The notes under the pieces: generated by a model
Told to the model about the DNA's origin: nothing
What the model saw: only the letters and a program-made list of their open reading frames with translations
Database searches by the model: none
Program-made: the position numbers and the translations under genes
In this document: piece by piece, positions 43,494-61,772 of the stretch
How positions within the stretch are numbered: position 1 is the stretch's first letter
Layout of the letters: every line of letters begins with the position of its first letter
DNA from: Desulfobacterales bacterium
GTDB taxonomy: Bacteria > Desulfobacterota > Desulfobacteria > Desulfobacterales > UBA5852
DNA length: 64,000 nucleotides
Direction of reading: 5' to 3'
Assembly (NCBI GenBank): GCA_963674755.2
Contig: CAXXVS010000003.1
Coordinates: 704,001 to 768,000 of the forward strand

Positions 43494-43661
43494 GGCGTGA
43501 CAGGCTTCAGGCGCCCGTGTCCCGCCTCCGGCAAGCCTTCGGCGGGCAGGCCCGCTTTCAGGATGACTTAGACGGATAAGGCCTTCTGCGGAAGACTTCA
43601 AGGATAAGCAGGCCGACACGCTTATCCCGCCCCCATCGTCGATGCTCGGCGCGGGGCAAAG
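43494..43661 (+). repeat. family B palindromic repeat, partial
   Basis: ggcgtgacaggcttca..gtgtcccg start shared with 50080 region; ends gatgctcggcgcggggcaaag. Confidence 0.55.
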
Positions 43662-51834: not shown

Positions 51835-51918
51835 TTAGGTGGTCACAATTTGTGACCACCTAAGAAAGGTTTTCTGAAGTAGGTATTTTAAATGGTTTAA
51901 AGCCCTTGGTTTTCACTG

Positions 51919-52087
51919 TTCCCTTTGTCCCGCGCTGAGCATCAGCGATGGGGGCGGATGAAGCGTGTCGGCCTGTCTGAGCGAAGCGAGTTCCGACACG
52001 CGCCGACTCCGTCGATGACGCGCAGGAAGAAGCGGGACACGGGCGTCTTCTTTTGGTTACTTTTCTGCCACGCGGAAGAAAAGTAAC
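51919..52087 (-). repeat. family B palindromic repeat (reverse)
   Basis: ccctttgtcccgcgctgagcatc ... tgagcgaagcgagt ... ttcttttggttacttttct..agaaaagtaac. Confidence 0.8.
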
Positions 52088-52156
52088 ATTGGAAAAAAAC
52101 AATAGATCTGTAGAACTGCTGTAGATCAAATCTATAAGAACGAAAAGGCTTAAACC

Positions 52157-52681
52157 ATGCTGCTGCAAAGCTATCAGCTCGATGTCATCAACAACCACTG
52201 CATGCCCAGTGCCCAGAGCGTCAACTGCATCGCCCGGCTGGACCAGGACGTGGGCTGTGCCATCCCCTACTTGAACGCAGTCATCGAGGGCGACCAGTTC
52301 ACCCCCGACCCGCCCTCCATCACCTTCCGCAACGAGGGCCGGCTGATTTCGGTCACGGAGCGCACGATCACGGTCAACGCCGTGGCGGACGAGGCCCAGG
52401 GCCGGAAGATTGTCGAATGGATCATGCGGGAGATCAACGACGCCTGGGAAAACAGGGAGAAGATCGCGCCGCGCTACACCAAGGCCGAACGCCCCCAGGT
52501 GGTTGAGGTTTTAAAACGCCTGCCCAAAACCAATTGCAAAAAATGTGGCGCGCCTACCTGCATGGTGTTTGCTACCTGGGTGGTCCAGGGGGCTAAGGAT
52601 GAGACGCAGTGCTCTGAGTTGAATGAAGAGGGGAAAAGAGAGCTGCAAGTTTATCTCACACGATTTAGTGCAGACGACTAA
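52157..52681 (+). CDS. Fe-S cluster domain-containing protein
   Basis: IPYLNAVI and LPKTNCKKCGAPTCMVFA...C; paralogous to the N-terminal part of 47696-48574. Confidence 0.82.
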   Translation: MLLQSYQLDVINNHCMPSAQSVNCIARLDQDVGCAIPYLNAVIEGDQFTPDPPSITFRNEGRLISVTERTITVNAVADEAQGRKIVEWIMREINDAWENREKIAPRYTKAERPQVVEVLKRLPKTNCKKCGAPTCMVFATWVVQGAKDETQCSELNEEGKRELQVYLTRFSADD

Positions 52682-52794: not shown

Positions 52795-55700
52795 ATGATT
52801 ATAAAAGGAATCCCAGATAGATGGGAGATAAGCCCAAAGAAAAAGCTTGATGTTCTGAGTAAAAATTGGCTGAATTCTGTGTCTTTCGATTTAAAAAACA
52901 TAAATTCTGATTCTGATAAAAGAATCACTATTGATCTCAGCAATATAGATTTTGTTTCAGCTTATGAATGGGTATCTTTGGTAGCTTTAGTCAACTATAC
53001 TATCGATAGAAAAGAAATTGACTATGTTGATATAGATCTGATTGGCGATAGTAAAGAAATGCTATTAAAACCAAAGGAATATATGCGATATATAGGCAAT
53101 AGAGATTTTTCTCGAACTACCTCCCCATCAGATTTTTATCATAGCCATAGGGCATATCAAATTGTTGGATTTTTAGAGGCATTTGGGACAAAAAGTGCCC
53201 TATTTAAAAGCCAAAAAAATGTTTCCATATTGTATCCTTGGCTGAATTTAAATGATGCTGATTTTCTGAACTTTTATGAATATAAAGAAACTAGACCAAC
53301 CGTTTTTTTAGGTTTAACTGAAATAAGAACAGAAGAAAATTGTCGATTATTCTTGGAAGATGAGATGGTAATGAATTGGCGAAATGCGATGAGAGAAAAA
53401 TTCGATAATTCGCCAATATTGGAGACAGAAGAAATCTGGCGCTCAATATGCCATGAACTATCAACTAACATATGGGAGCACTCTAATTCAAGTGGATATA
53501 TTTTTTACCGAGTTGTAAAACCAGTAGGGAAAAATAATAAAATACGTTGGTGGTGCAAGAATAATTATTCAGAAACACTTGGTAATTTATGGGGCAAATA
53601 CAAAGATGGATTTTTAGAAATTTGTGCAGTAGATTCAGGAGATGGTTTTGTTAATAGTTTAAAAGAATCATATTTAAACCAATCCAATCGCAAAAGTTGT
53701 GGACTTTCCGATGTAGTAGATATTTTATCTTTCGCATTTGATGAATTTGGGACATCTAAAACTAAGGATGAGAGTTGGGTTCTCAGTAGACATGCCTTAG
53801 GTAGGATTTTGTTAATAGTTTCTAAGTATGGTGGGGTGATTACGCTAAGATCTGATGGAGTTGAGATTAGATATATATCGTCGGAAAAAGGGTTTCTTCG
53901 AAATAAGAATGGTATGGGTTACAAACCTTCATCAGTAGACTATATCGATGAGAATATAGTTGGTTCTCATATACAAATATTGCTTCCGCTATATCCTACT
54001 GTTTCGTACAAGGATTTTGTCGAAAGGGAATCAGTTTTTAATTATTTACCAAAAAGTTATACGATAGACCCTAATCACGTTAGAGGGCATCTTGTTCCTG
54101 TCATGGAGTCATTGGGTTTTAAAAACGTTGTGCGCGGTACGAAAAACATTAGAAAATTTAGAAATGCATGCATAAGGTTGAACAATAGTCTTAGAGATCA
54201 ACACCCCCCATCCGAACCACTAATATTCGATTTTAGTGCAATTAATTGGGAGCCAGCACAGTTCGAGACATTTTTATATTTATTGCAAAATATCATACAA
54301 AAAAGACTTGTATTATTGGTAGAAATTGATTCCAGGCTCGCAAAAGAAGTAATTAAATTAGAGGCGGATTTATCGGATACATTTATTGATAAAAAGGTAC
54401 TCGGCCATTCATCTGAAAAAAAGTTTTTTGAAACTTATACAGCTATAAACAATATAGTATTAGGAATTGATAAAAATGGCGAAAAGTATCTGTTTGGACT
54501 ATCAGATCATAAATATGAAAAGGCGCTTCTTGGGTTGATTGAAACACCAGATACCATAAGTGGGTTATGCAGCTTTATTAATGGCAGTAAGGAAAACGAA
54601 GCATTTTGTAAAACAATATTAACAAGAGAATCGAGCTTATTTTATCTAGACAAATTGAACCGGTGGAACTGTTCTTGGAATAGTGAGGAGATTCTATTAC
54701 AAGCAAATAGAATCATATCAGATCATTTTGATCAAATTGCAAATGCAACAGGGGCATGGCAAGGAAGATCTCTAAGTTATAGCGATCATATTGATGAGCT
54801 TGATGATTCTAAAATTATTAAGAAACACTTTCATGCCAAACTGAAATATAATTTGCCATGGCAAGAAGAATGGAGAGATGCTTTTCTTGAATCATCTAAA
54901 ATTTTATCTAGAGAACGATATTGTGATGAAGCTGCACATAGGCTAATTTATAGATTAAAATATGGCCTTGAAAAATTACATAGAAAACTTGATGACGTTA
55001 ACGTTTTTGTTTGCGTTACTGGCCCCGCTTTGCTTCTAGCATCTGCTATGTATCGATGGTGGCCGGATGTCAAAAGACCAATCGTTGCAGACTTAAGTTA
55101 TAATGTTCTTTTAGAATCATCAGAAAGCCTCCCTTCAATTGTAGATGAAGGTGGAATAGTCATAGTGCAGGACATTTTCGAGCGTCGTAAAGTATCAGGA
55201 GAACTTTTACGTAAACTACAAAACCAATCAAAGGATATTCTCTGTGCAATTAGTTTAATAAAATTACGTAAAAATGTTATTAAGACAAAAATTATTCCAG
55301 TATCTGAAGGATGGGCAGATAGACGAAGCCCAAGATCAGATAGACTTCCATATCATTCCTTAATTGAGGCCCCTTCACCTTCTGTCTGCGAACCACCAAA
55401 TGAAAACGACGATGATTCTAATTTGTTTTGGATAGAACCACGTTCATTACACCCAACGAGTTATAGGCACCTAAGAAGAGAGTTTGGTGAAGGTCGCGAT
55501 CCATATTTACGCAGAAGAGATGAAATTCTCCCTGAGTTTGATAGTAAAACAAATGGTTGCTTATTTGCTGCCGGACATTATGTTTATGGTCATCGCCATT
55601 ACCAAGTTGCCATCGATGTTAAAAAATTAATCTCTGGGAAAATTGGAAAACTCATTTCAAATTGGATTGCAGATGTATGCGAAGGCAATCCTATGAGAAA

Positions 55701-58014
55701 TCAAGCTGCTTGGGAAAGAGACCGCGGTTATCGCTTAAAAGGTGATGTAACATTTATAATTATGCCCTTGCATAGTCAAATACATTATTTATGGCCTGAA
55801 ATTCGTAACGTATTAGCACAGAGAGGCCGTAGAGTAATAATGTGTTTACTAGATGCAACATTATTTTCCGGGAGACGCCCAACTTATCGAATTTCACATC
55901 ATTTAGAACAACAACTTAAACGAGCATCTTTAGATGCTATTGAAGCATGTAAAGCAAAATTAGATGATCACCCATCTCCTTTGCGACTATTCATAATTGA
56001 CGATGCAATTGCATCAGCAAGAAGTGCTGAAACAATTCTATTAAGCATATCAAATAGATTAAATAAAATATTTAGAAAAGCCAATTTCAATTTAGACAAA
56101 TTGCCTAATAAATATCATCCAATACAATGGATAAGATATTTTGCAATATTAAATCAAATGGGACATGCTAATCATACATTATGGCATAATATGAAACATA
56201 TCGGTACTCCTCCAATAAATTTTATTTTAGAAGAATATGCTCCTTTTATGGGGGTTCCGTTATACGAAAAAAAGGATTGCCCATATTGTAATGATAGAGC
56301 GAGATTGAAACAACTAATAGCGAATTGCTCTCAATTTGGTGCTAATATGACTGTAGAGTGGGTAAATGAGAGTTATAGGGAACTAAAGCCTATCGCTATC
56401 GATGGCCCCACTTTTGGTAGAAAAGAACCTACACCAATTGACTCTGGAATAGATATTTTAGGGCTAAGATCTAAAAGAATGGGAGCCCATCCTATAAAGT
56501 ATATAACCAAATTTGCAGATACAGCAATTTGGCGTTTTCACAAACTTATGCATTTGTCATATCCAATAGAAGATATATTGAGAAATATAAATAAGTGGTG
56601 GGAGTTTAATATAGCAAAAAAGGAAAATTATGACGAAAGCCAAAAGATAGAGTATCAACGATATAGATGGGCAGTTATTGATTGGTGCATTAAAAACTGG
56701 AGCAGGGTGAAAGCAAGTACAGCAAGGAAATCATTTGTTGATTTAATAGATCGAGAATTGAAGAACAACACCCCACTAATTGAAAAATTTTTGAATGGTT
56801 GTCATTTTATCTATACGGACAAGTATATTTTTGATTTACTAAAAAAAATGATTTTTGAGTTAGAACGTTTAGAATTTCAGCGTAAAGAGGAAAACAAAGT
56901 TATAGATAAAGAAAGAATTGAAAGGATAGATCGAATTGAGACAGGGTTAACTATATTCTTTTTAAATATAGTTGGTATTAATGATGAAGGGCAATCTACC
57001 AATAACTTGGAAGGAATAAACGATTCTTCTAAAGAGCTTTTAAATGAGCTAGAGAATTCAACGAAGAGACTTAGCAAAATAGGAACTAATTTAATAAATA
57101 ATTTGTATACTAGATTAATAAGGCCTAAAAGTATAGCAAGTCCAAAATGGGCTTTAAATGCTGTTGCAGAAAATTTATTTAGAGGGAGAGATCCCAAAAA
57201 TGCTCCTGCTGGAAGACATCATTTATTACCAAGAGTATTGTATGATAATTTCAGTAAAAAAAGAAATATTGAAGATTTGTTATTGCTAGAAGGAAGTCTA
57301 AGCGTTTTTCTGGCTGCTCTTAAAGATATTCTTCCTTATGCATATCTTTCATCTCCTTTCGGTGATATGAGTAGTATTACTCCTGATGCAGAGAACGTTA
57401 AAGATTTGTCAGAAAAAATATTGAACTGGATAAAAATAAATACAAGAGAAAAACTTTTAAAGGACAGACCTCCAGAGCTAACAGTTTTATATGATTCTTT
57501 AAGTTTAGACGGAAAATTTGTGCAAGCATTTAATGCAATATTTCAAGTAGATATAAATTATATAAAGAATTATATTGAAAATACAAAAGCAGAAAGACCA
57601 TTTAGTGCTGAATTGGATTTCAAATTTATATCAAGTCCAGGTACTGGAAATAGTACTGTACTATGTTATATTAATAGCCTTTTGAACATTCTCATGAATC
57701 ACGCTGTTGATCCAATGGATAAAATGTCCAAAAATCATAAATCAAAAATCGAAGTATCTAAACCTAATCGAAATGAGTTTCATACTGATCGGATGGTTTT
57801 TCGAATTGCTACCAATTTTGACTCTCTCGACATAACTAATCAAAAAATATTCGATAGCAAACGTGGTTTGCGTGAGTTAAAAAACATTGAGATATTCGGC
57901 GCTAAATTTCACAGCAGGGAATGGTTTAAACCTAATCAAGAAGAAATCGAAGATGGCTATACGGCTGCTTGGGAAATCATGATACCAACAGGATACTTAT
58001 CAAAAAAGGATTGA
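52795..58014 (+). CDS. 1739-aa multidomain protein: STAS-like + HATPase + STAS-like + two PRTase-like domains + degenerate C-terminal kinase-like domain
   Basis: ITIDLSNIDFVS (aa~44); HELSTNIWEHS (220), DSGDG (280), RHALG..GG.ITLRS (332); LIFDFSAI (476); IVIVQDIF (~790); GHYVYGHRHY (927), FIIDDAIASARS (~1067), CPYC (1162). CDS certain, domain calls by eye. Confidence 0.75.
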   Translation: MIIKGIPDRWEISPKKKLDVLSKNWLNSVSFDLKNINSDSDKRITIDLSNIDFVSAYEWVSLVALVNYTIDRKEIDYVDIDLIGDSKEMLLKPKEYMRYIGNRDFSRTTSPSDFYHSHRAYQIVGFLEAFGTKSALFKSQKNVSILYPWLNLNDADFLNFYEYKETRPTVFLGLTEIRTEENCRLFLEDEMVMNWRNAMREKFDNSPILETEEIWRSICHELSTNIWEHSNSSGYIFYRVVKPVGKNNKIRWWCKNNYSETLGNLWGKYKDGFLEICAVDSGDGFVNSLKESYLNQSNRKSCGLSDVVDILSFAFDEFGTSKTKDESWVLSRHALGRILLIVSKYGGVITLRSDGVEIRYISSEKGFLRNKNGMGYKPSSVDYIDENIVGSHIQILLPLYPTVSYKDFVERESVFNYLPKSYTIDPNHVRGHLVPVMESLGFKNVVRGTKNIRKFRNACIRLNNSLRDQHPPSEPLIFDFSAINWEPAQFETFLYLLQNIIQKRLVLLVEIDSRLAKEVIKLEADLSDTFIDKKVLGHSSEKKFFETYTAINNIVLGIDKNGEKYLFGLSDHKYEKALLGLIETPDTISGLCSFINGSKENEAFCKTILTRESSLFYLDKLNRWNCSWNSEEILLQANRIISDHFDQIANATGAWQGRSLSYSDHIDELDDSKIIKKHFHAKLKYNLPWQEEWRDAFLESSKILSRERYCDEAAHRLIYRLKYGLEKLHRKLDDVNVFVCVTGPALLLASAMYRWWPDVKRPIVADLSYNVLLESSESLPSIVDEGGIVIVQDIFERRKVSGELLRKLQNQSKDILCAISLIKLRKNVIKTKIIPVSEGWADRRSPRSDRLPYHSLIEAPSPSVCEPPNENDDDSNLFWIEPRSLHPTSYRHLRREFGEGRDPYLRRRDEILPEFDSKTNGCLFAAGHYVYGHRHYQVAIDVKKLISGKIGKLISNWIADVCEGNPMRNQAAWERDRGYRLKGDVTFIIMPLHSQIHYLWPEIRNVLAQRGRRVIMCLLDATLFSGRRPTYRISHHLEQQLKRASLDAIEACKAKLDDHPSPLRLFIIDDAIASARSAETILLSISNRLNKIFRKANFNLDKLPNKYHPIQWIRYFAILNQMGHANHTLWHNMKHIGTPPINFILEEYAPFMGVPLYEKKDCPYCNDRARLKQLIANCSQFGANMTVEWVNESYRELKPIAIDGPTFGRKEPTPIDSGIDILGLRSKRMGAHPIKYITKFADTAIWRFHKLMHLSYPIEDILRNINKWWEFNIAKKENYDESQKIEYQRYRWAVIDWCIKNWSRVKASTARKSFVDLIDRELKNNTPLIEKFLNGCHFIYTDKYIFDLLKKMIFELERLEFQRKEENKVIDKERIERIDRIETGLTIFFLNIVGINDEGQSTNNLEGINDSSKELLNELENSTKRLSKIGTNLINNLYTRLIRPKSIASPKWALNAVAENLFRGRDPKNAPAGRHHLLPRVLYDNFSKKRNIEDLLLLEGSLSVFLAALKDILPYAYLSSPFGDMSSITPDAENVKDLSEKILNWIKINTREKLLKDRPPELTVLYDSLSLDGKFVQAFNAIFQVDINYIKNYIENTKAERPFSAELDFKFISSPGTGNSTVLCYINSLLNILMNHAVDPMDKMSKNHKSKIEVSKPNRNEFHTDRMVFRIATNFDSLDITNQKIFDSKRGLRELKNIEIFGAKFHSREWFKPNQEEIEDGYTAAWEIMIPTGYLSKKD

Positions 58015-58016
58015 AA

Positions 58017-59615
58017 ATGCCGATTAATATTCTTTATGTGGAAAATAGCCATAGAGATTATCTTGAACTTAAGAACGCTGCTGACGAATACAATAGCCAT
58101 AATTCTATAGATCCACTTGGAATATATAGAGCGCTTGACCCAGATGAAATGAAGGGATTAATTGGCCCTCAATTTAGTGTGATACTGGCAGACGTCTTCT
58201 TCAACGATCCTCAAACTGGTGAAGAGGATCAAATAAATAGATTAAAGGATATTATTGAGTATGTGAATGATTGGTGTAAATCACAAAGTAAGGATACATC
58301 AATTCCGATCATCGCTTATACTGGTAGAGCAACTTTAGAACAGTGTTTGGAGCAACAAGATTACTTATATGACATATGGGACAAAAATACTACAAATACT
58401 AACTATGTAATATGGAGGTTATCAAATCTTTCAATTGATATGTCAAGATATCAACCAGATGCATACATGCAAACTCTTATACGAGAAATGACTAAAGGAG
58501 CATCTTGGCATGATAAAGTAAAGGAAATGACTATTGACTACGATTCAGCCTTAAATGAATATGATCAAATCTACAGAGTTGACAAAACTATAGGTATAAT
58601 TGCGAATAATTTTGATACTGAAAACACTTGTGTTGAAATGTGGGGTTTAATTGAAAAGTCAGAACCGATAACGAGAGCACTAAATAAAAACATTAGAGGT
58701 CATGCAAGGCATGCCATTAATGTATTTTGGTTAGGCTACTATATTTTGAATTCTAGTGAGATCTCAGATCTCGTAATACAATATTGGAAAAACATGTTGA
58801 TAGATAGGCCAGATATGAAAGCGGTCAAAGATGTTGACTGTTTAGAAGCTTTAAATAACATTTGGTTCTATACAGGGTTGTTTCATGATATAGGAATAAA
58901 TGTAGAAAAATATAATCTTCAGTATGAGCAACAAAAATTATTTAAAAAGCATTTCAATGACTACGCCCTCCCATTGCCAAATCTAAAGGGGTTTCCGTTA
59001 TTAGAATTGCCATCTGAAATTAATGATTTAATTAATGAAATTAGCGGTAAGGAATTCGGAGAAGAATTAAGGGATAAATTTCTTGAAGGTATAAAAGGGA
59101 AAATACCCGATCATGGTCTTGTTGCTGCTACTTACTACCTAAAAAATATTCAATCAAATATGGAGCAGAAAAAATTTGCTAAAGAGGCAGCTAGGGCTAC
59201 TTTACTTCACAACATAATTTCGGAGGATTTTAGTCGGAATAAAACATTACTGAATTGGGAAAATGATTTTATTTCCTGTTTGCTATTGGTTTGTGATCAA
59301 TTGCAAACGTGGGATAGACAGCGCGAAGATAAATTGCTTATTGACGAAGAAAAGCCAGAAAGGGCAGAATTGAAAAGCCTTTCTTTTGAAAAACTAAAAG
59401 ATAAATATAAATTATCAATATTCATAGACTATATTGCTCCAGTCCATGTTGTTAGACACCCATACCACTATCAAAAACTTCGACATAGTTTAACCAATAT
59501 TATTTTGAAAAAACCTAACAAAGCTCTAAAAAAAATCGCCAAGCCCTGGCCTTTTGAATTATATGTAAATTTGACTTTGGGGAGGAAAGAGTTTTATAAA
59601 TTTACTTATAAATAG
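58017..59615 (+). CDS. response-regulator receiver domain fused to HD-superfamily phosphohydrolase
   Basis: ILYVEN, ILAD59V, AYT102G, WDK123; then H229ARH, FH290D291IG, DH366G, LH398N, CD427QLQTWDR; ATG 2 nt after upstream TGA, AAGGA RBS. Confidence 0.8.
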   Translation: MPINILYVENSHRDYLELKNAADEYNSHNSIDPLGIYRALDPDEMKGLIGPQFSVILADVFFNDPQTGEEDQINRLKDIIEYVNDWCKSQSKDTSIPIIAYTGRATLEQCLEQQDYLYDIWDKNTTNTNYVIWRLSNLSIDMSRYQPDAYMQTLIREMTKGASWHDKVKEMTIDYDSALNEYDQIYRVDKTIGIIANNFDTENTCVEMWGLIEKSEPITRALNKNIRGHARHAINVFWLGYYILNSSEISDLVIQYWKNMLIDRPDMKAVKDVDCLEALNNIWFYTGLFHDIGINVEKYNLQYEQQKLFKKHFNDYALPLPNLKGFPLLELPSEINDLINEISGKEFGEELRDKFLEGIKGKIPDHGLVAATYYLKNIQSNMEQKKFAKEAARATLLHNIISEDFSRNKTLLNWENDFISCLLLVCDQLQTWDRQREDKLLIDEEKPERAELKSLSFEKLKDKYKLSIFIDYIAPVHVVRHPYHYQKLRHSLTNIILKKPNKALKKIAKPWPFELYVNLTLGRKEFYKFTYK

Positions 59616-59699
59616 ACCAAGCAAGAAATAGGCCATGATGGGGACGCCCTTTATATATTTATATTTACATACCCGACCGTTTTCTGATATACATCTGAA

Positions 59700-60023
59700 A
59701 TGCCCCGACAAGCGCGAATCGATGCCCTCGGTGCGGTCCACCACATCATTGTCAGAGGAATCGAACGGCGTAAGATCTTCCTTGACGACCAGGATCGCGA
59801 CAACTTCGTAAACCGGCTGGGCGACCTGGTTATAGAAACCCAGACCCCATGTTTCGCCTGGGCGCTGCTTCCCAATCATTTCCATCTTCTGCTGCAAACC
59901 GGCTCCGTTCCCATCGCCACGTTGATGCGCCGGCTGCTGACCGGTTATGCTATCGGCTTTAACCGACGTCACCGCCGCAGCGGCCATCTGTTTCAAAACC
60001 GCTATAAATCTATCTTGTGGTAA
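59700..60023 (+). pseudogene. truncated Y1/RAYT-like transposase
   Basis: 59634-60019 duplicates 60674-61059 (6 differences counted by eye); cut at codon 107 by an IS66 end, before the catalytic Tyr. Confidence 0.9.
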
Positions 60024-60186: not shown

Positions 60187-60294
60187 AGGCCATGATGGGG
60201 ACGCCCTAAACTTTTAAACTTCACGACCCAATCGGATAGTTTACCCAAACCTAAACTATAGATAATGATTCATGTTGGCGGAAGAGGAGAGAAA

Positions 60295-60588
60295 TTGCCA
60301 AAGCTTAAATGTCCTAATTGCAAACAAACGATTTCATTCTTTCATTTTTTTAAGGCATTCAGCCCTTGGAATTTTAAATGCTCAAGTTGCAATAAAAAAA
60401 TCAGGCCGAATAAAGCATCAATGACAATATTCCTTGCGTTTATGATATTGGCCGCGTTTTTCGGTTGGTTCAGACGATCGTTAAATCTCTCATGGCCTAG
60501 TTTTCTTGTCCTCGGGATAATTTTAGCAGGCATCGCCGAATATGCAATGTATTGGTTATATGTACAATTCGGTGCGACAACAGACTAA
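60295..60588 (+). CDS. small AT-rich Zn-ribbon membrane protein (CxxC-19-CxxC + 2 TM)
   Basis: CPNC-x19-CSSC then two hydrophobic helices; GAGGAG RBS before TTG 60295. Confidence 0.7.
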   Translation: MPKLKCPNCKQTISFFHFFKAFSPWNFKCSSCNKKIRPNKASMTIFLAFMILAAFFGWFRRSLNLSWPSFLVLGIILAGIAEYAMYWLYVQFGATTD

Positions 60589-60680
60589 ATCAGCCTGCCA
60601 ACCCACTTTCGACAAGGGACCAGGACGGGAGAAACGTGGGAACGACCCAAACTTATAAACTTCAGCATGGGAACATGATG

Positions 60681-61772
60681 GGGACGCCCTTTATATATTT
60701 ATATTTACATACCCGACCGTTTTCTGATATACATCTGAAATGCCCCGACAAGCGCGAATCGATGCTCCCGGTGCGGTCCACCACATCATTGTCAGAGGAA
60801 TCGAACGGCGTAAGATCTTCCTTGACGACCAGGACCGCGACAACTTCGTAAACCGGCTGGGCGACCTGGTTATAGAAACCCAGACCCCATGTTTCGCCTG
60901 GGCGCTGCTTCCCAATCATTTCCATCTTCTGCTGCAAACCGGTTCCGTTCCCATCGCCACGTTGATGCGCCGGCTGCTGACAGGTTATGCTATCGGCTTT
61001 AACCGACGTCACCGCCGCAGCGGCCATCTGTTTCAGAACCGCTATAAATCTATCTTGTGCGAAGAAGATGTTTATCTAAAGGAACTGGTTCGCTACATCC
61101 ATCTGAATCCTTTGAGGGCCAAGGTGGTTAATGACATCGTGGCCTTGGAGGGATACCGGTTTGCCGGTCACAGCTATTTGATGGGCAAACAGGAAAACGA
61201 TTGGCAGGCGCTCGACCGTGTATTGTCCTTGTTTGGAAAGCGTACATCCCCGGCCCGGCGCCAGTATCGCGAGTACGTTAAAAAGGGCTTGGACCAGGGT
61301 CGCCGGCCGGAATTGATCGGAGGCGGTTTGGTTCGAAGCACCGGCGGCTGGAAGGCCGTGCGATCACAGCGCCAAGCGGGTCTCCTTTTGAAAAGCGACG
61401 AACGGATTTTGGGCAGCAGCGAATTTGTGGGCAAGGTCCTGGCGGAAGCTCAGGAAGCTATGCAAAACAAGTATGTTCTGAGATCCAAAGGCATCGGGCT
61501 CGATGAGGTGATGAAAGCAGTAGCCCGTGAGCTGTCCATTGAAATGCAGGTGCTCATCGGTCCCGGTAAAGCGCGCACCATCGTCAAGGCCCGCCAGTTA
61601 GTGTGCCACTGGGCCGTGACAGAGCTGGGGTTGCCGATGACCGATGTCGCGCGACGGCTGGGCATTGCCGTACCAACCGTCAGTGTTGCGGCCAAAAAGG
61701 GCCGGGGACTTGCCGATAGGGAGCGATGGGTATTAGCCGATCTCCTAAATATAAAGGTATAAAGGGCGTCCC
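60681..61772. mobile_element. 1.09-kb unit bounded by 27-bp inverted repeats and containing the Y1 transposase
   Basis: gggacgccctttatatatttatattta (60681-60707) versus taaatataaaggtataaagggcgtccc (61746-61772): 25/27 complementary. Confidence 0.7.
60740..61762 (+). CDS. Y1 HUH tyrosine transposase (RAYT-like) with C-terminal HTH
   Basis: MPRQAR..HHIIVRGIERRKIF, HUH motif NHFHLL, GHLFQNRY, catalytic RYIHLNP; C-terminal DnaA-like HTH (ARQLVCHW...MTDVARRLG..TVS). Confidence 0.9.
   Translation: MPRQARIDAPGAVHHIIVRGIERRKIFLDDQDRDNFVNRLGDLVIETQTPCFAWALLPNHFHLLLQTGSVPIATLMRRLLTGYAIGFNRRHRRSGHLFQNRYKSILCEEDVYLKELVRYIHLNPLRAKVVNDIVALEGYRFAGHSYLMGKQENDWQALDRVLSLFGKRTSPARRQYREYVKKGLDQGRRPELIGGGLVRSTGGWKAVRSQRQAGLLLKSDERILGSSEFVGKVLAEAQEAMQNKYVLRSKGIGLDEVMKAVARELSIEMQVLIGPGKARTIVKARQLVCHWAVTELGLPMTDVARRLGIAVPTVSVAAKKGRGLADRERWVLADLLNIKV

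Follow-up and report, generated by a model that had tools for sequence, protein, structure and literature searches.

A candidate two-gene defence cassette in a Desulfobacterales genome pairs a giant STAS-GHKL-PRTase protein with a receiver-HD phosphohydrolase

A 64,000-nucleotide (nt) stretch of the genome of a Desulfobacterales bacterium (GenBank assembly GCA_963674755.2, contig CAXXVS010000003.1; hereafter the window, to which the coordinates below refer) carries two adjacent genes which form a conserved pair. The pair probably serves defence, and its architecture is new to the two-component defence theme. Gene 1 (52795..58014, + strand) encodes a multi-domain sensor/regulator of 1739 amino acids (aa), delimited by its open reading frame (ORF), its homologues and AlphaFold models, and gene 2 (58017-59615, + strand) encodes a 532-aa protein with a receiver domain and an HD-superfamily phosphohydrolase domain. 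Our best reading, with a probability of roughly 0.55, is a Detocs-like, horizontally spread two-gene defence system of the abortive-infection type, in which gene 1 would sense the infection and the HD effector would execute the response. If this is true, the cassette adds a new family of HD effectors and a defence system found in environmental phyla that have been sampled poorly, and it joins in one operon two immune modules described separately, namely the DNA-damage kinase of CapK/VapK and the receiver-effector of Detocs. It also raises a biochemical question: what drives a conserved phospho-receiver when the histidine-kinase core is ATP-blind and the sole intact ATP site belongs to a domain of the serine-kinase type?

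Pairing, distribution and genomic context

Both ORFs are intact and meet at the junction TGA-AA-ATG; a TTG start of gene 2 at 57969 was ruled out, since the homologues start at the ATG. The GC content of the island is 0.333 against 0.57-0.59 in the three contigs of the genome (58% overall), and just 2 of the genome's 1914 overlapping 7-kb windows have values below 0.345. An earlier note on this DNA had described two tightly coupled genes in an AT-rich island, and the ORFs, the junction and the difference in GC (33% vs 58%) were all verified. It had also reported neither transmembrane (TM) helices nor signal peptides. The hydropathy values are in line with this (19-residue peaks of 1.72 and 1.71, which are borderline, in gene 1 and of 1.03 in gene 2), and fold searches with both gene 1 models returned soluble folds only, no dedicated TM or signal-peptide predictor having been applied.

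Counting the query in each case, 92 homologues of gene 2 and, at E<=1e-3, 64 of gene 1 were retrieved, and a full-library profile search gave 136 representatives of gene 2 at E<=1e-30. From 61 fetched gene 2 loci, 16 without the 5' end or 400 bp upstream were dropped, leaving 45 informative ones; these include near-duplicates, so they are not 45 independent events, and, being gathered via gene 2, they say nothing on gene 1 with other partners in large collections. In 44 of the 45, gene 2 is immediately preceded by the end of gene 1 (gap about -32 to +18 nt), with no gene between them and no conserved third gene among the neighbours. The lone exception, locus L012, is interrupted by an insertion sequence (IS). 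Pairwise identities of the gene 1 and gene 2 proteins correlate with a Spearman coefficient of 0.92 (300 non-independent pairs, 25 sequences). Homologues occur in Deltaproteobacteria, Verrucomicrobiota, Acidobacteriota, Aminicenantes, a Kuenenia-labelled metagenome-assembled genome and Nitrospiraceae; among 401 genomes of its phylum, full-length genes were present only in the genome studied here. The GC content is below that of the flanks in 19/24 loci. The pair was not found in the plasmids or IMG/VR contigs searched, the phage collection being outside the search. The pair is a rare, patchily distributed, co-evolving and horizontally spread cassette.

In two related loci (L028:139-2415 and L042:2570-4843), an LRR-Roc-COR gene is located about 15 nt upstream of gene 1 on the same strand. 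At L050:104-3403, both genes are present as fragments, inverted and scrambled, owing to rearrangement or misassembly.

To describe the neighbourhood, a PADLOC scan at E<=1e-15 was made of 230 ORFs around 28 non-redundant loci with flanks, taken from the 61 and including L012. The control was a set of 140 ORFs drawn from the genome studied here, in 15 stretches of 11 kb at even spacing (5 of 20 dropped). Matches were obtained for 28/230 neighbours vs 6/140 controls (Fisher two-sided p 0.015), and all six control matches look like housekeeping domains. The defence enrichment near the pair is real and moderate, measured against a one-genome control. Clear defence neighbours are DISARM (L002), type I restriction-modification (R-M) with PtuA (L003) and BREX with HEC-01 (L009); further ones are methyltransferases (L026, L039), PD-Lambda-2 (L040) and four Mrr genes (L015), and the neighbour set also covers type II R-M. 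No metabolic neighbour is conserved across the 28 loci, and the pair lies outside housekeeping synteny. The conserved pairing and non-housekeeping context on which the earlier note had staked its proposal were therefore found, the neighbours being enriched for defence and mobile genes.

A second cassette comes directly after the pair at L040:11772-15586 (duplicated in L019). It comprises a 764-aa GAF histidine kinase, a standalone receiver as well as two small ORFs of membrane type, has PD-Lambda-2_B-like genes on its flanks and is possibly another Detocs-like system. At L008:2590-4914, the pair follows an N-terminal fragment of hsdM, with an N6-methylase fragment nearby on the opposite strand and a TrwC relaxase downstream.

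Domain architecture of the two proteins

The features of both proteins lie on the + strand. Residues 1-140 of gene 2 (58017..58436) form a receiver domain of the phosphorylatable type, and the family profile matches the PhoP receiver with E 8.8e-12. Among 172 full-length members, E/D9 is present in 168, D59 in 169, and T/S102 and K123 in 170 each. The HD-superfamily phosphohydrolase domain follows at about residues 225-440 (58689..59336), with ligands in the order H232..H290-D291..H366..H398..D427; H232, H290 and D291 occur in 172/172 members, H398 and D427 in 171/172 and H366 in 146/172. The H...HD...D metal ligands of the HD superfamily are therefore present at the sequence level. Both the receiver with its D/T/K residues and the full H..HD..H..H..D set had been read by the earlier note, and the residues it had named in the two proteins (D59, H290/D291, D1069/D1070 and the N-box residues E221/N225) are all present and conserved.

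Pfam HD gave weak matches in 6/82 gene 2 members, and HD-CE (PF24391) matched 0/82 members, 0/54 distant members and nothing in G000. With hhalign, gene 2 reached 5% against a five-sequence HD-CE template; in the ESM Atlas, it resembles, with a feature score of 0.91, a cluster in which HD-CE accounts for 100% and Response_reg for 38%.

The HD domain is also found with other sensors. In P0235, it is located behind a SLOG domain, and at L012 a close gene 2 homologue follows an ordinary GAF histidine kinase whose H, N, G1 and G2 boxes are all intact. Because of these other sensors, the HD domain looks like a swappable, sensor-gated module, as with the Detocs effectors. In L012:2182-11272, the gene 2 homologue and the multi-GAF kinase are each broken by a different insertion sequence. 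At L160:6417-11470 (G239), a PocR-type histidine kinase and a standalone receiver accompany a 768-aa protein that has no Pfam match and contains an HD domain distantly related to that of gene 2; the three-gene arrangement is Detocs-like and has an HD effector.

Gene 1 was modelled with AlphaFold in two parts, residues 1-1170 (pLDDT 81.7, pTM 0.78) and 1171-1739 (pLDDT 90.0, pTM 0.90); residue counts refer to 64 alignment rows for sites in the first part and 69 rows for the C-terminal sites. A STAS-like domain 1 at about residues 8-135 (52816..53199) lies inside a 257-column alignment to VapK-like STAS-GHKL kinases; alone, it reached only 27% probability against 5 host STAS domains. Position 53 is aromatic in 56/64 rows and is a possible counterpart of the aromatic residues W68 of CapK and F54 of VapK. 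Residues 167-402 (53293..54000) form a GHKL kinase/ATPase of the anti-sigma (SpoIIAB/VapK) type, as indicated by the conserved boxes and by the fold: the best GHKL-fold match is SpoIIAB 1l0o (VIA Z 11.6, rmsd 2.9, 133 aligned). The N and G1 boxes are intact (E221 58/64, N225 61/64, D280/G282/G284 62/64), and the G2 box has changed from GxGL to RHAL, with H333 in 63/64.

Residues 26-399 match a profile of five STAS-GHKL-type kinases from DUF4325-adjacent loci, two of which have the arrangement STAS-GHKL + STAS (DUF4325) + PIN (hhalign 97.4%, E 1.3e-11; reversed control 0.16%). On this profile evidence, the N-terminus of gene 1 is homologous to the kinases of vapKSC-type operons. An ordinary histidine-kinase (HK) transmitter was rejected for this domain, which scored 76% against host HKs vs 97% against VapK-like kinases. 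As a separate observation, L164:549-2577 (G078) contains a STAS-GHKL-type kinase and a DUF4325 STAS gene, behind which an MNT-HEPN pair takes the place of the PIN toxin, and may be a vapKS variant.

The next segment (54082..54684) probably contains a STAS-like domain 2 (about residues 430-560; STAS2) and a winged helix (wHTH, about 570-630), which recall CapS; this assignment comes from secondary structure in the model and from motif inspection. Profile comparison of STAS2 with STAS and DUF4325, using small templates, was not significant. At the usual STAS phosphosite, STAS2 has no conserved Ser/Thr (Q489 in 53/64, preceded by A/G488, aligned by eye), and T492 (58/64) lies further along the helix.

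Two type I phosphoribosyltransferase (PRTase) domains follow. PRTase1 (residues 640-870, 54712..55404) was recognised by its fold match to orotate PRTases (residues 640-873; VIA Z 14.9 to OPRTase 4ohc and Z 14.1 to 3m3h), and PurR (wHTH-PRTase) is also among the gene 1 fold matches (Z 13.4). Its phosphoribosyl pyrophosphate (PRPP) loop is altered, with QD for DD (Q792 52/64, D793 62/64). PRTase2 (about 915-1155, 55537..56289) has the loop DD-x-x-x-[ST]-[AG]-R-T and, likewise conserved, the motifs GHYVYGxRH and PLHS; D1069 is found in 61/64 rows, D1070 in 60/64, and H928, H935 and S994 in 64/64. A CxxC (C1162/C1165) follows PRTase2 in 63/64. In a Pfam scan of gene 1 and 8 homologues, Pribosyltran was the sole family, in 3 of them (above cut-off on the PRTase2 loop in L015 and L056), and the PRTase-CE profile gave no match in the same set. 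Comparison of PRTase1 with PRTase2 by small-template profiles was not significant.

The C-terminal part begins with an all-helical region (residues 1171-1581, 56305..57537), seen in the model of residues 1171-1739, which is a candidate phosphotransfer/docking region. It includes His1475 (codon 57217-57219) in the motif H-x-L-L-P, conserved in 64/69. The last 158 residues (1582-1739, 57538..58011) have the fold of a degenerate HK catalytic (CA) domain, matching the CckA CA domain 5idm with VIA Z 12.3 (rmsd 3.3, 145 aligned). In its G1 box, the adenine-binding DxG is replaced by T-N-F (T1673 62/69, F1675 60/69), the Mg-binding Asn position is mostly D (D1639 42/69) followed by P, and G2 is lost. 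Judged by the established GHKL motifs, this domain appears to have lost ATP binding throughout the family. In its reading of gene 1, the earlier note was right about the GHKL and PRTase domains and overlooked the two STAS-like domains and the degenerate C-terminal CA domain.

Comparison with known systems and the proposed mechanism

Detocs is described, in the available part of its source (bioRxiv 10.1101/2023.01.24.525353), as DtcA-DtcB-DtcC, with DtcB a standalone receiver and an ATP nucleosidase as output; the effector types named there are PNP, REase, TOPRIM and TM hydrolase. The cassette resembles it in having a cytoplasmic HK-fold sensor upstream of a receiver-enzyme fusion, a conserved phospho-Asp and modular effectors, and a predicted phospho-Asp receiver fused to a putative effector is found in gene 2 (D59 169/172, K123 170/172, HD ligands). 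Unlike Detocs, it has two genes and no standalone receiver, no TPR sensor, and a STAS-GHKL module and two PRTase domains in addition. Its C-terminal kinase core is degenerate, with the CA fold kept and G1/G2 lost, in place of an intact ATP-binding core, and the HD effector is outside the types named in that part of the source. Membership in Detocs was rejected, as the third gene and the intact kinase core are absent. Neither protein matched PADLOC 2.0.0 at E<=1, the presence of Detocs models in PADLOC being unverified.

In PMC13373217, vapKSC has the layout STAS-GHKL + STAS + PIN, protects against a phage through toxin release and is a relative of CapK, which single-stranded DNA (ssDNA) activates; W68 of CapK and F54 of VapK are the ssDNA-stacking aromatics, and the phospho-Ser/Thr of the partners CapS/VapS is absolutely conserved. 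Gene 1 shares with these systems a SpoIIAB-type STAS-GHKL kinase (kinase-profile homology 97.4%) followed by a probable STAS(-wHTH) unit. It differs in that a single 1739-aa chain holds both the kinase and the STAS-wHTH, with no separate STAS partner, in the absence of the phospho-Ser from STAS2, in the RHAL form of the G2 box and in the output, a receiver-HD protein in place of transcription or VapC.

With the HD-CE and PRTase-CE conflict effectors, this cassette has in common that HD and PRTase domains occur in mobile operons resembling defence loci. However, no scanned member gave a hidden Markov model match to them, profile similarity was confined to the HD motif, and membership in both families was rejected on the profile scans. 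The C-terminal module has, like ChpT, Spo0B, PhyT and DivL, a conserved His and a CA-fold domain without ATP motifs; it matches the ChpT complex 4qpj with Z 9.0, below ordinary CA domains. Those proteins are small or membrane regulators of development and stress, whereas here the module ends a giant protein, and its DHp fold and dimer are conjectural. Degenerate kinases can be phosphotransferases, phosphatases, negative regulators or sensors of phosphorylated response regulators (PMC5898713 and PMC4211667).

Searches of both proteins against Pfam, PADLOC and NCBIfam gave chance-level matches only, and those against PDB sequences (single proteins; sets A1, A2, A5, A6) gave nothing significant, with OPRTase at E 0.1 only. 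The architecture was not described in the full-text literature searched, nor in the available parts of PMC13092281, PMC7159879, PMC12839542, PMC12871103 and PMC13712802; Nicastro et al. 2023 or Burroughs and Aravind 2020, beyond that search, could list it. Within these libraries and this literature, the earlier note's statement that the pair is no named system stands. In terms of its predicted domains, the cassette would work like Detocs, shares a module with CapK/VapK and lacks defining features of both.

Based on the above, we suggest the following mechanism. The STAS-GHKL module and/or the tandem PRTases of gene 1 would detect a sign of infection, either ssDNA or nucleotides whose pool has been disturbed or modified. 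This signal would then be relayed via the C-terminal pseudo-HK module (His1475 and the ATP-blind CA domain), in the manner of ChpT, Spo0B or PhyT, to D59 of gene 2. The phosphorylation state of D59 would switch on the HD phosphohydrolase, and a nucleotide required by the phage would be destroyed. A defence role of the pair is likely, and so is a nucleotide as the HD substrate; control of D59 phosphorylation by gene 1 is rather likely. It is doubtful that the N-terminal GHKL is the phosphoryl source, and ssDNA as the trigger is more doubtful still. A one-chain relay crossing two phosphorylation chemistries seems unlikely: in it, the anti-sigma-type GHKL, activated by ssDNA or nucleotides, would pass the phosphoryl group through H1475 or H333 to gene 2, whose receiver would control an HD nucleotide hydrolase of a new kind, and the tandem PRTases would provide a second input, making gene 1 a coincidence detector of DNA damage and nucleotide state. 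As for the phosphorelay of the earlier note, the phosphorylatable receiver holds, while the intact GHKL is of the anti-sigma/VapK-CapK serine-kinase type and not an HK transmitter. A plain relay from a sensor HK to the receiver is unsupported, because the receiver-facing HK fold, at the C-terminus, has no ATP-binding motifs. Complex prediction for residues 1171-1739 of gene 1 with the receiver gave a score of 0.00 and no verdict, and speaks neither way.

Several points weigh against the Detocs-like reading. With the intact GHKL of the Ser-kinase type and the HK-type one without ATP motifs, the phosphoryl source is left unexplained. His1475 sits before a helix, outside any recognised DHp, and no DHp match was obtained for its region (5.8%); STAS2 has no phospho-Ser, and the PRPP loop of PRTase1 is altered. 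As gene 2 has no HD-CE match, no substrate can be carried over to it from a characterised family. At the locus level (matches covering at least 70% of the profile, judged by eye), the enrichment is 12/28 vs 2/15 (two-sided p 0.086), with generic domains in 3 of the 12 and a single genome as the control, and a defence neighbour is absent at several loci (L010, L013, L043, L051).

The loss of ATP motifs from the C-terminal CA domain across the family, with the His conserved, would also suit a guard or antitoxin role, which we regard as rather improbable. Here, gene 1 would keep the REC-HD protein off by binding it or by draining D59~P supplied by host kinases or acetyl phosphate, similar to PhyT or DivL, and infection would lift the brake. 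Degenerate kinases acting as negative regulators or sensors of phosphorylated response regulators (PMC5898713, PMC4211667) and the toxin release of VapKSC (PMC13373217) fit such a role, as does the finding that an intact gene 2 always stands behind a kinase-type gene in the 45 informative loci, one exception being IS-interrupted. However, at L012 the REC-HD protein is paired with a kinase having intact H, N, G1 and G2 boxes, which suggests that phosphorylation means activation.

A reversal of roles, with PRTase2 of gene 1 as the toxic or signal-making enzyme and REC-HD as the eraser of its product until switched off, is improbable. PRTases serve as toxic components in defence systems, and PRTase2 retains its PRPP-binding loop and several invariant His and Ser residues. 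Nevertheless, the HD module also accompanies PRTase-free sensors (L012, P0235, and L160, where a distant HD comes behind a kinase plus a receiver), which is the pattern of an output domain. Least probable is a mobile stress or nucleotide-metabolism signalling cassette outside defence, with PurR/PyrR-like sensing controlling a second-messenger hydrolase: the fold matches include PurR, defence neighbours are missing from many loci and the boundary between stress and immune pathways is called fuzzy in the CapK paper (PMC13373217), but metabolic neighbours are not conserved across the 28 loci, and the cassette is rare, low in GC and inserted amid R-M, BREX and DISARM genes.

Flanks of the cassette

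Upstream of the island, outside the system, lies a host Fe-S gene (52157..52681, + strand) that is kept in 5/5 congeners examined and marks a variable insertion slot. The cargo that follows it differs in each of the 5 congeners: G401, for instance, has an AIPR/AbiU-like gene there, and G410 an integrase and a Schlafen gene. In the same slot of the latter genome, the low-GC cargo L104:11113-15748 comprises an integrase, a 509-aa ORF without annotation and an AAA ATPase of small size, and is a candidate unknown element.

Downstream of gene 2, the "transposase debris" of the earlier note proved to be a truncated duplicate (59634..60019, + strand) that derives from a REP-associated tyrosine transposase gene together with the region upstream of it and is 98.4% identical over 386 bp to 60674-61059. 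The full copy of the gene is at 60740-61762 (NCBIfam NF047646, E 1.5e-18, under the family cut-off). Between the two copies, 60265-60588 encodes a 107-aa CxxC zinc-ribbon membrane protein, TIGR04104-like at a sub-cut-off score. A family of palindromic intergenic repeats was found at 51886-52116 and also near 43609, 44671, 47344, 50031 and 50333; numerous in this genome as well as in the congeners, these repeats are REP-like and perhaps tied to the tyrosine transposase.

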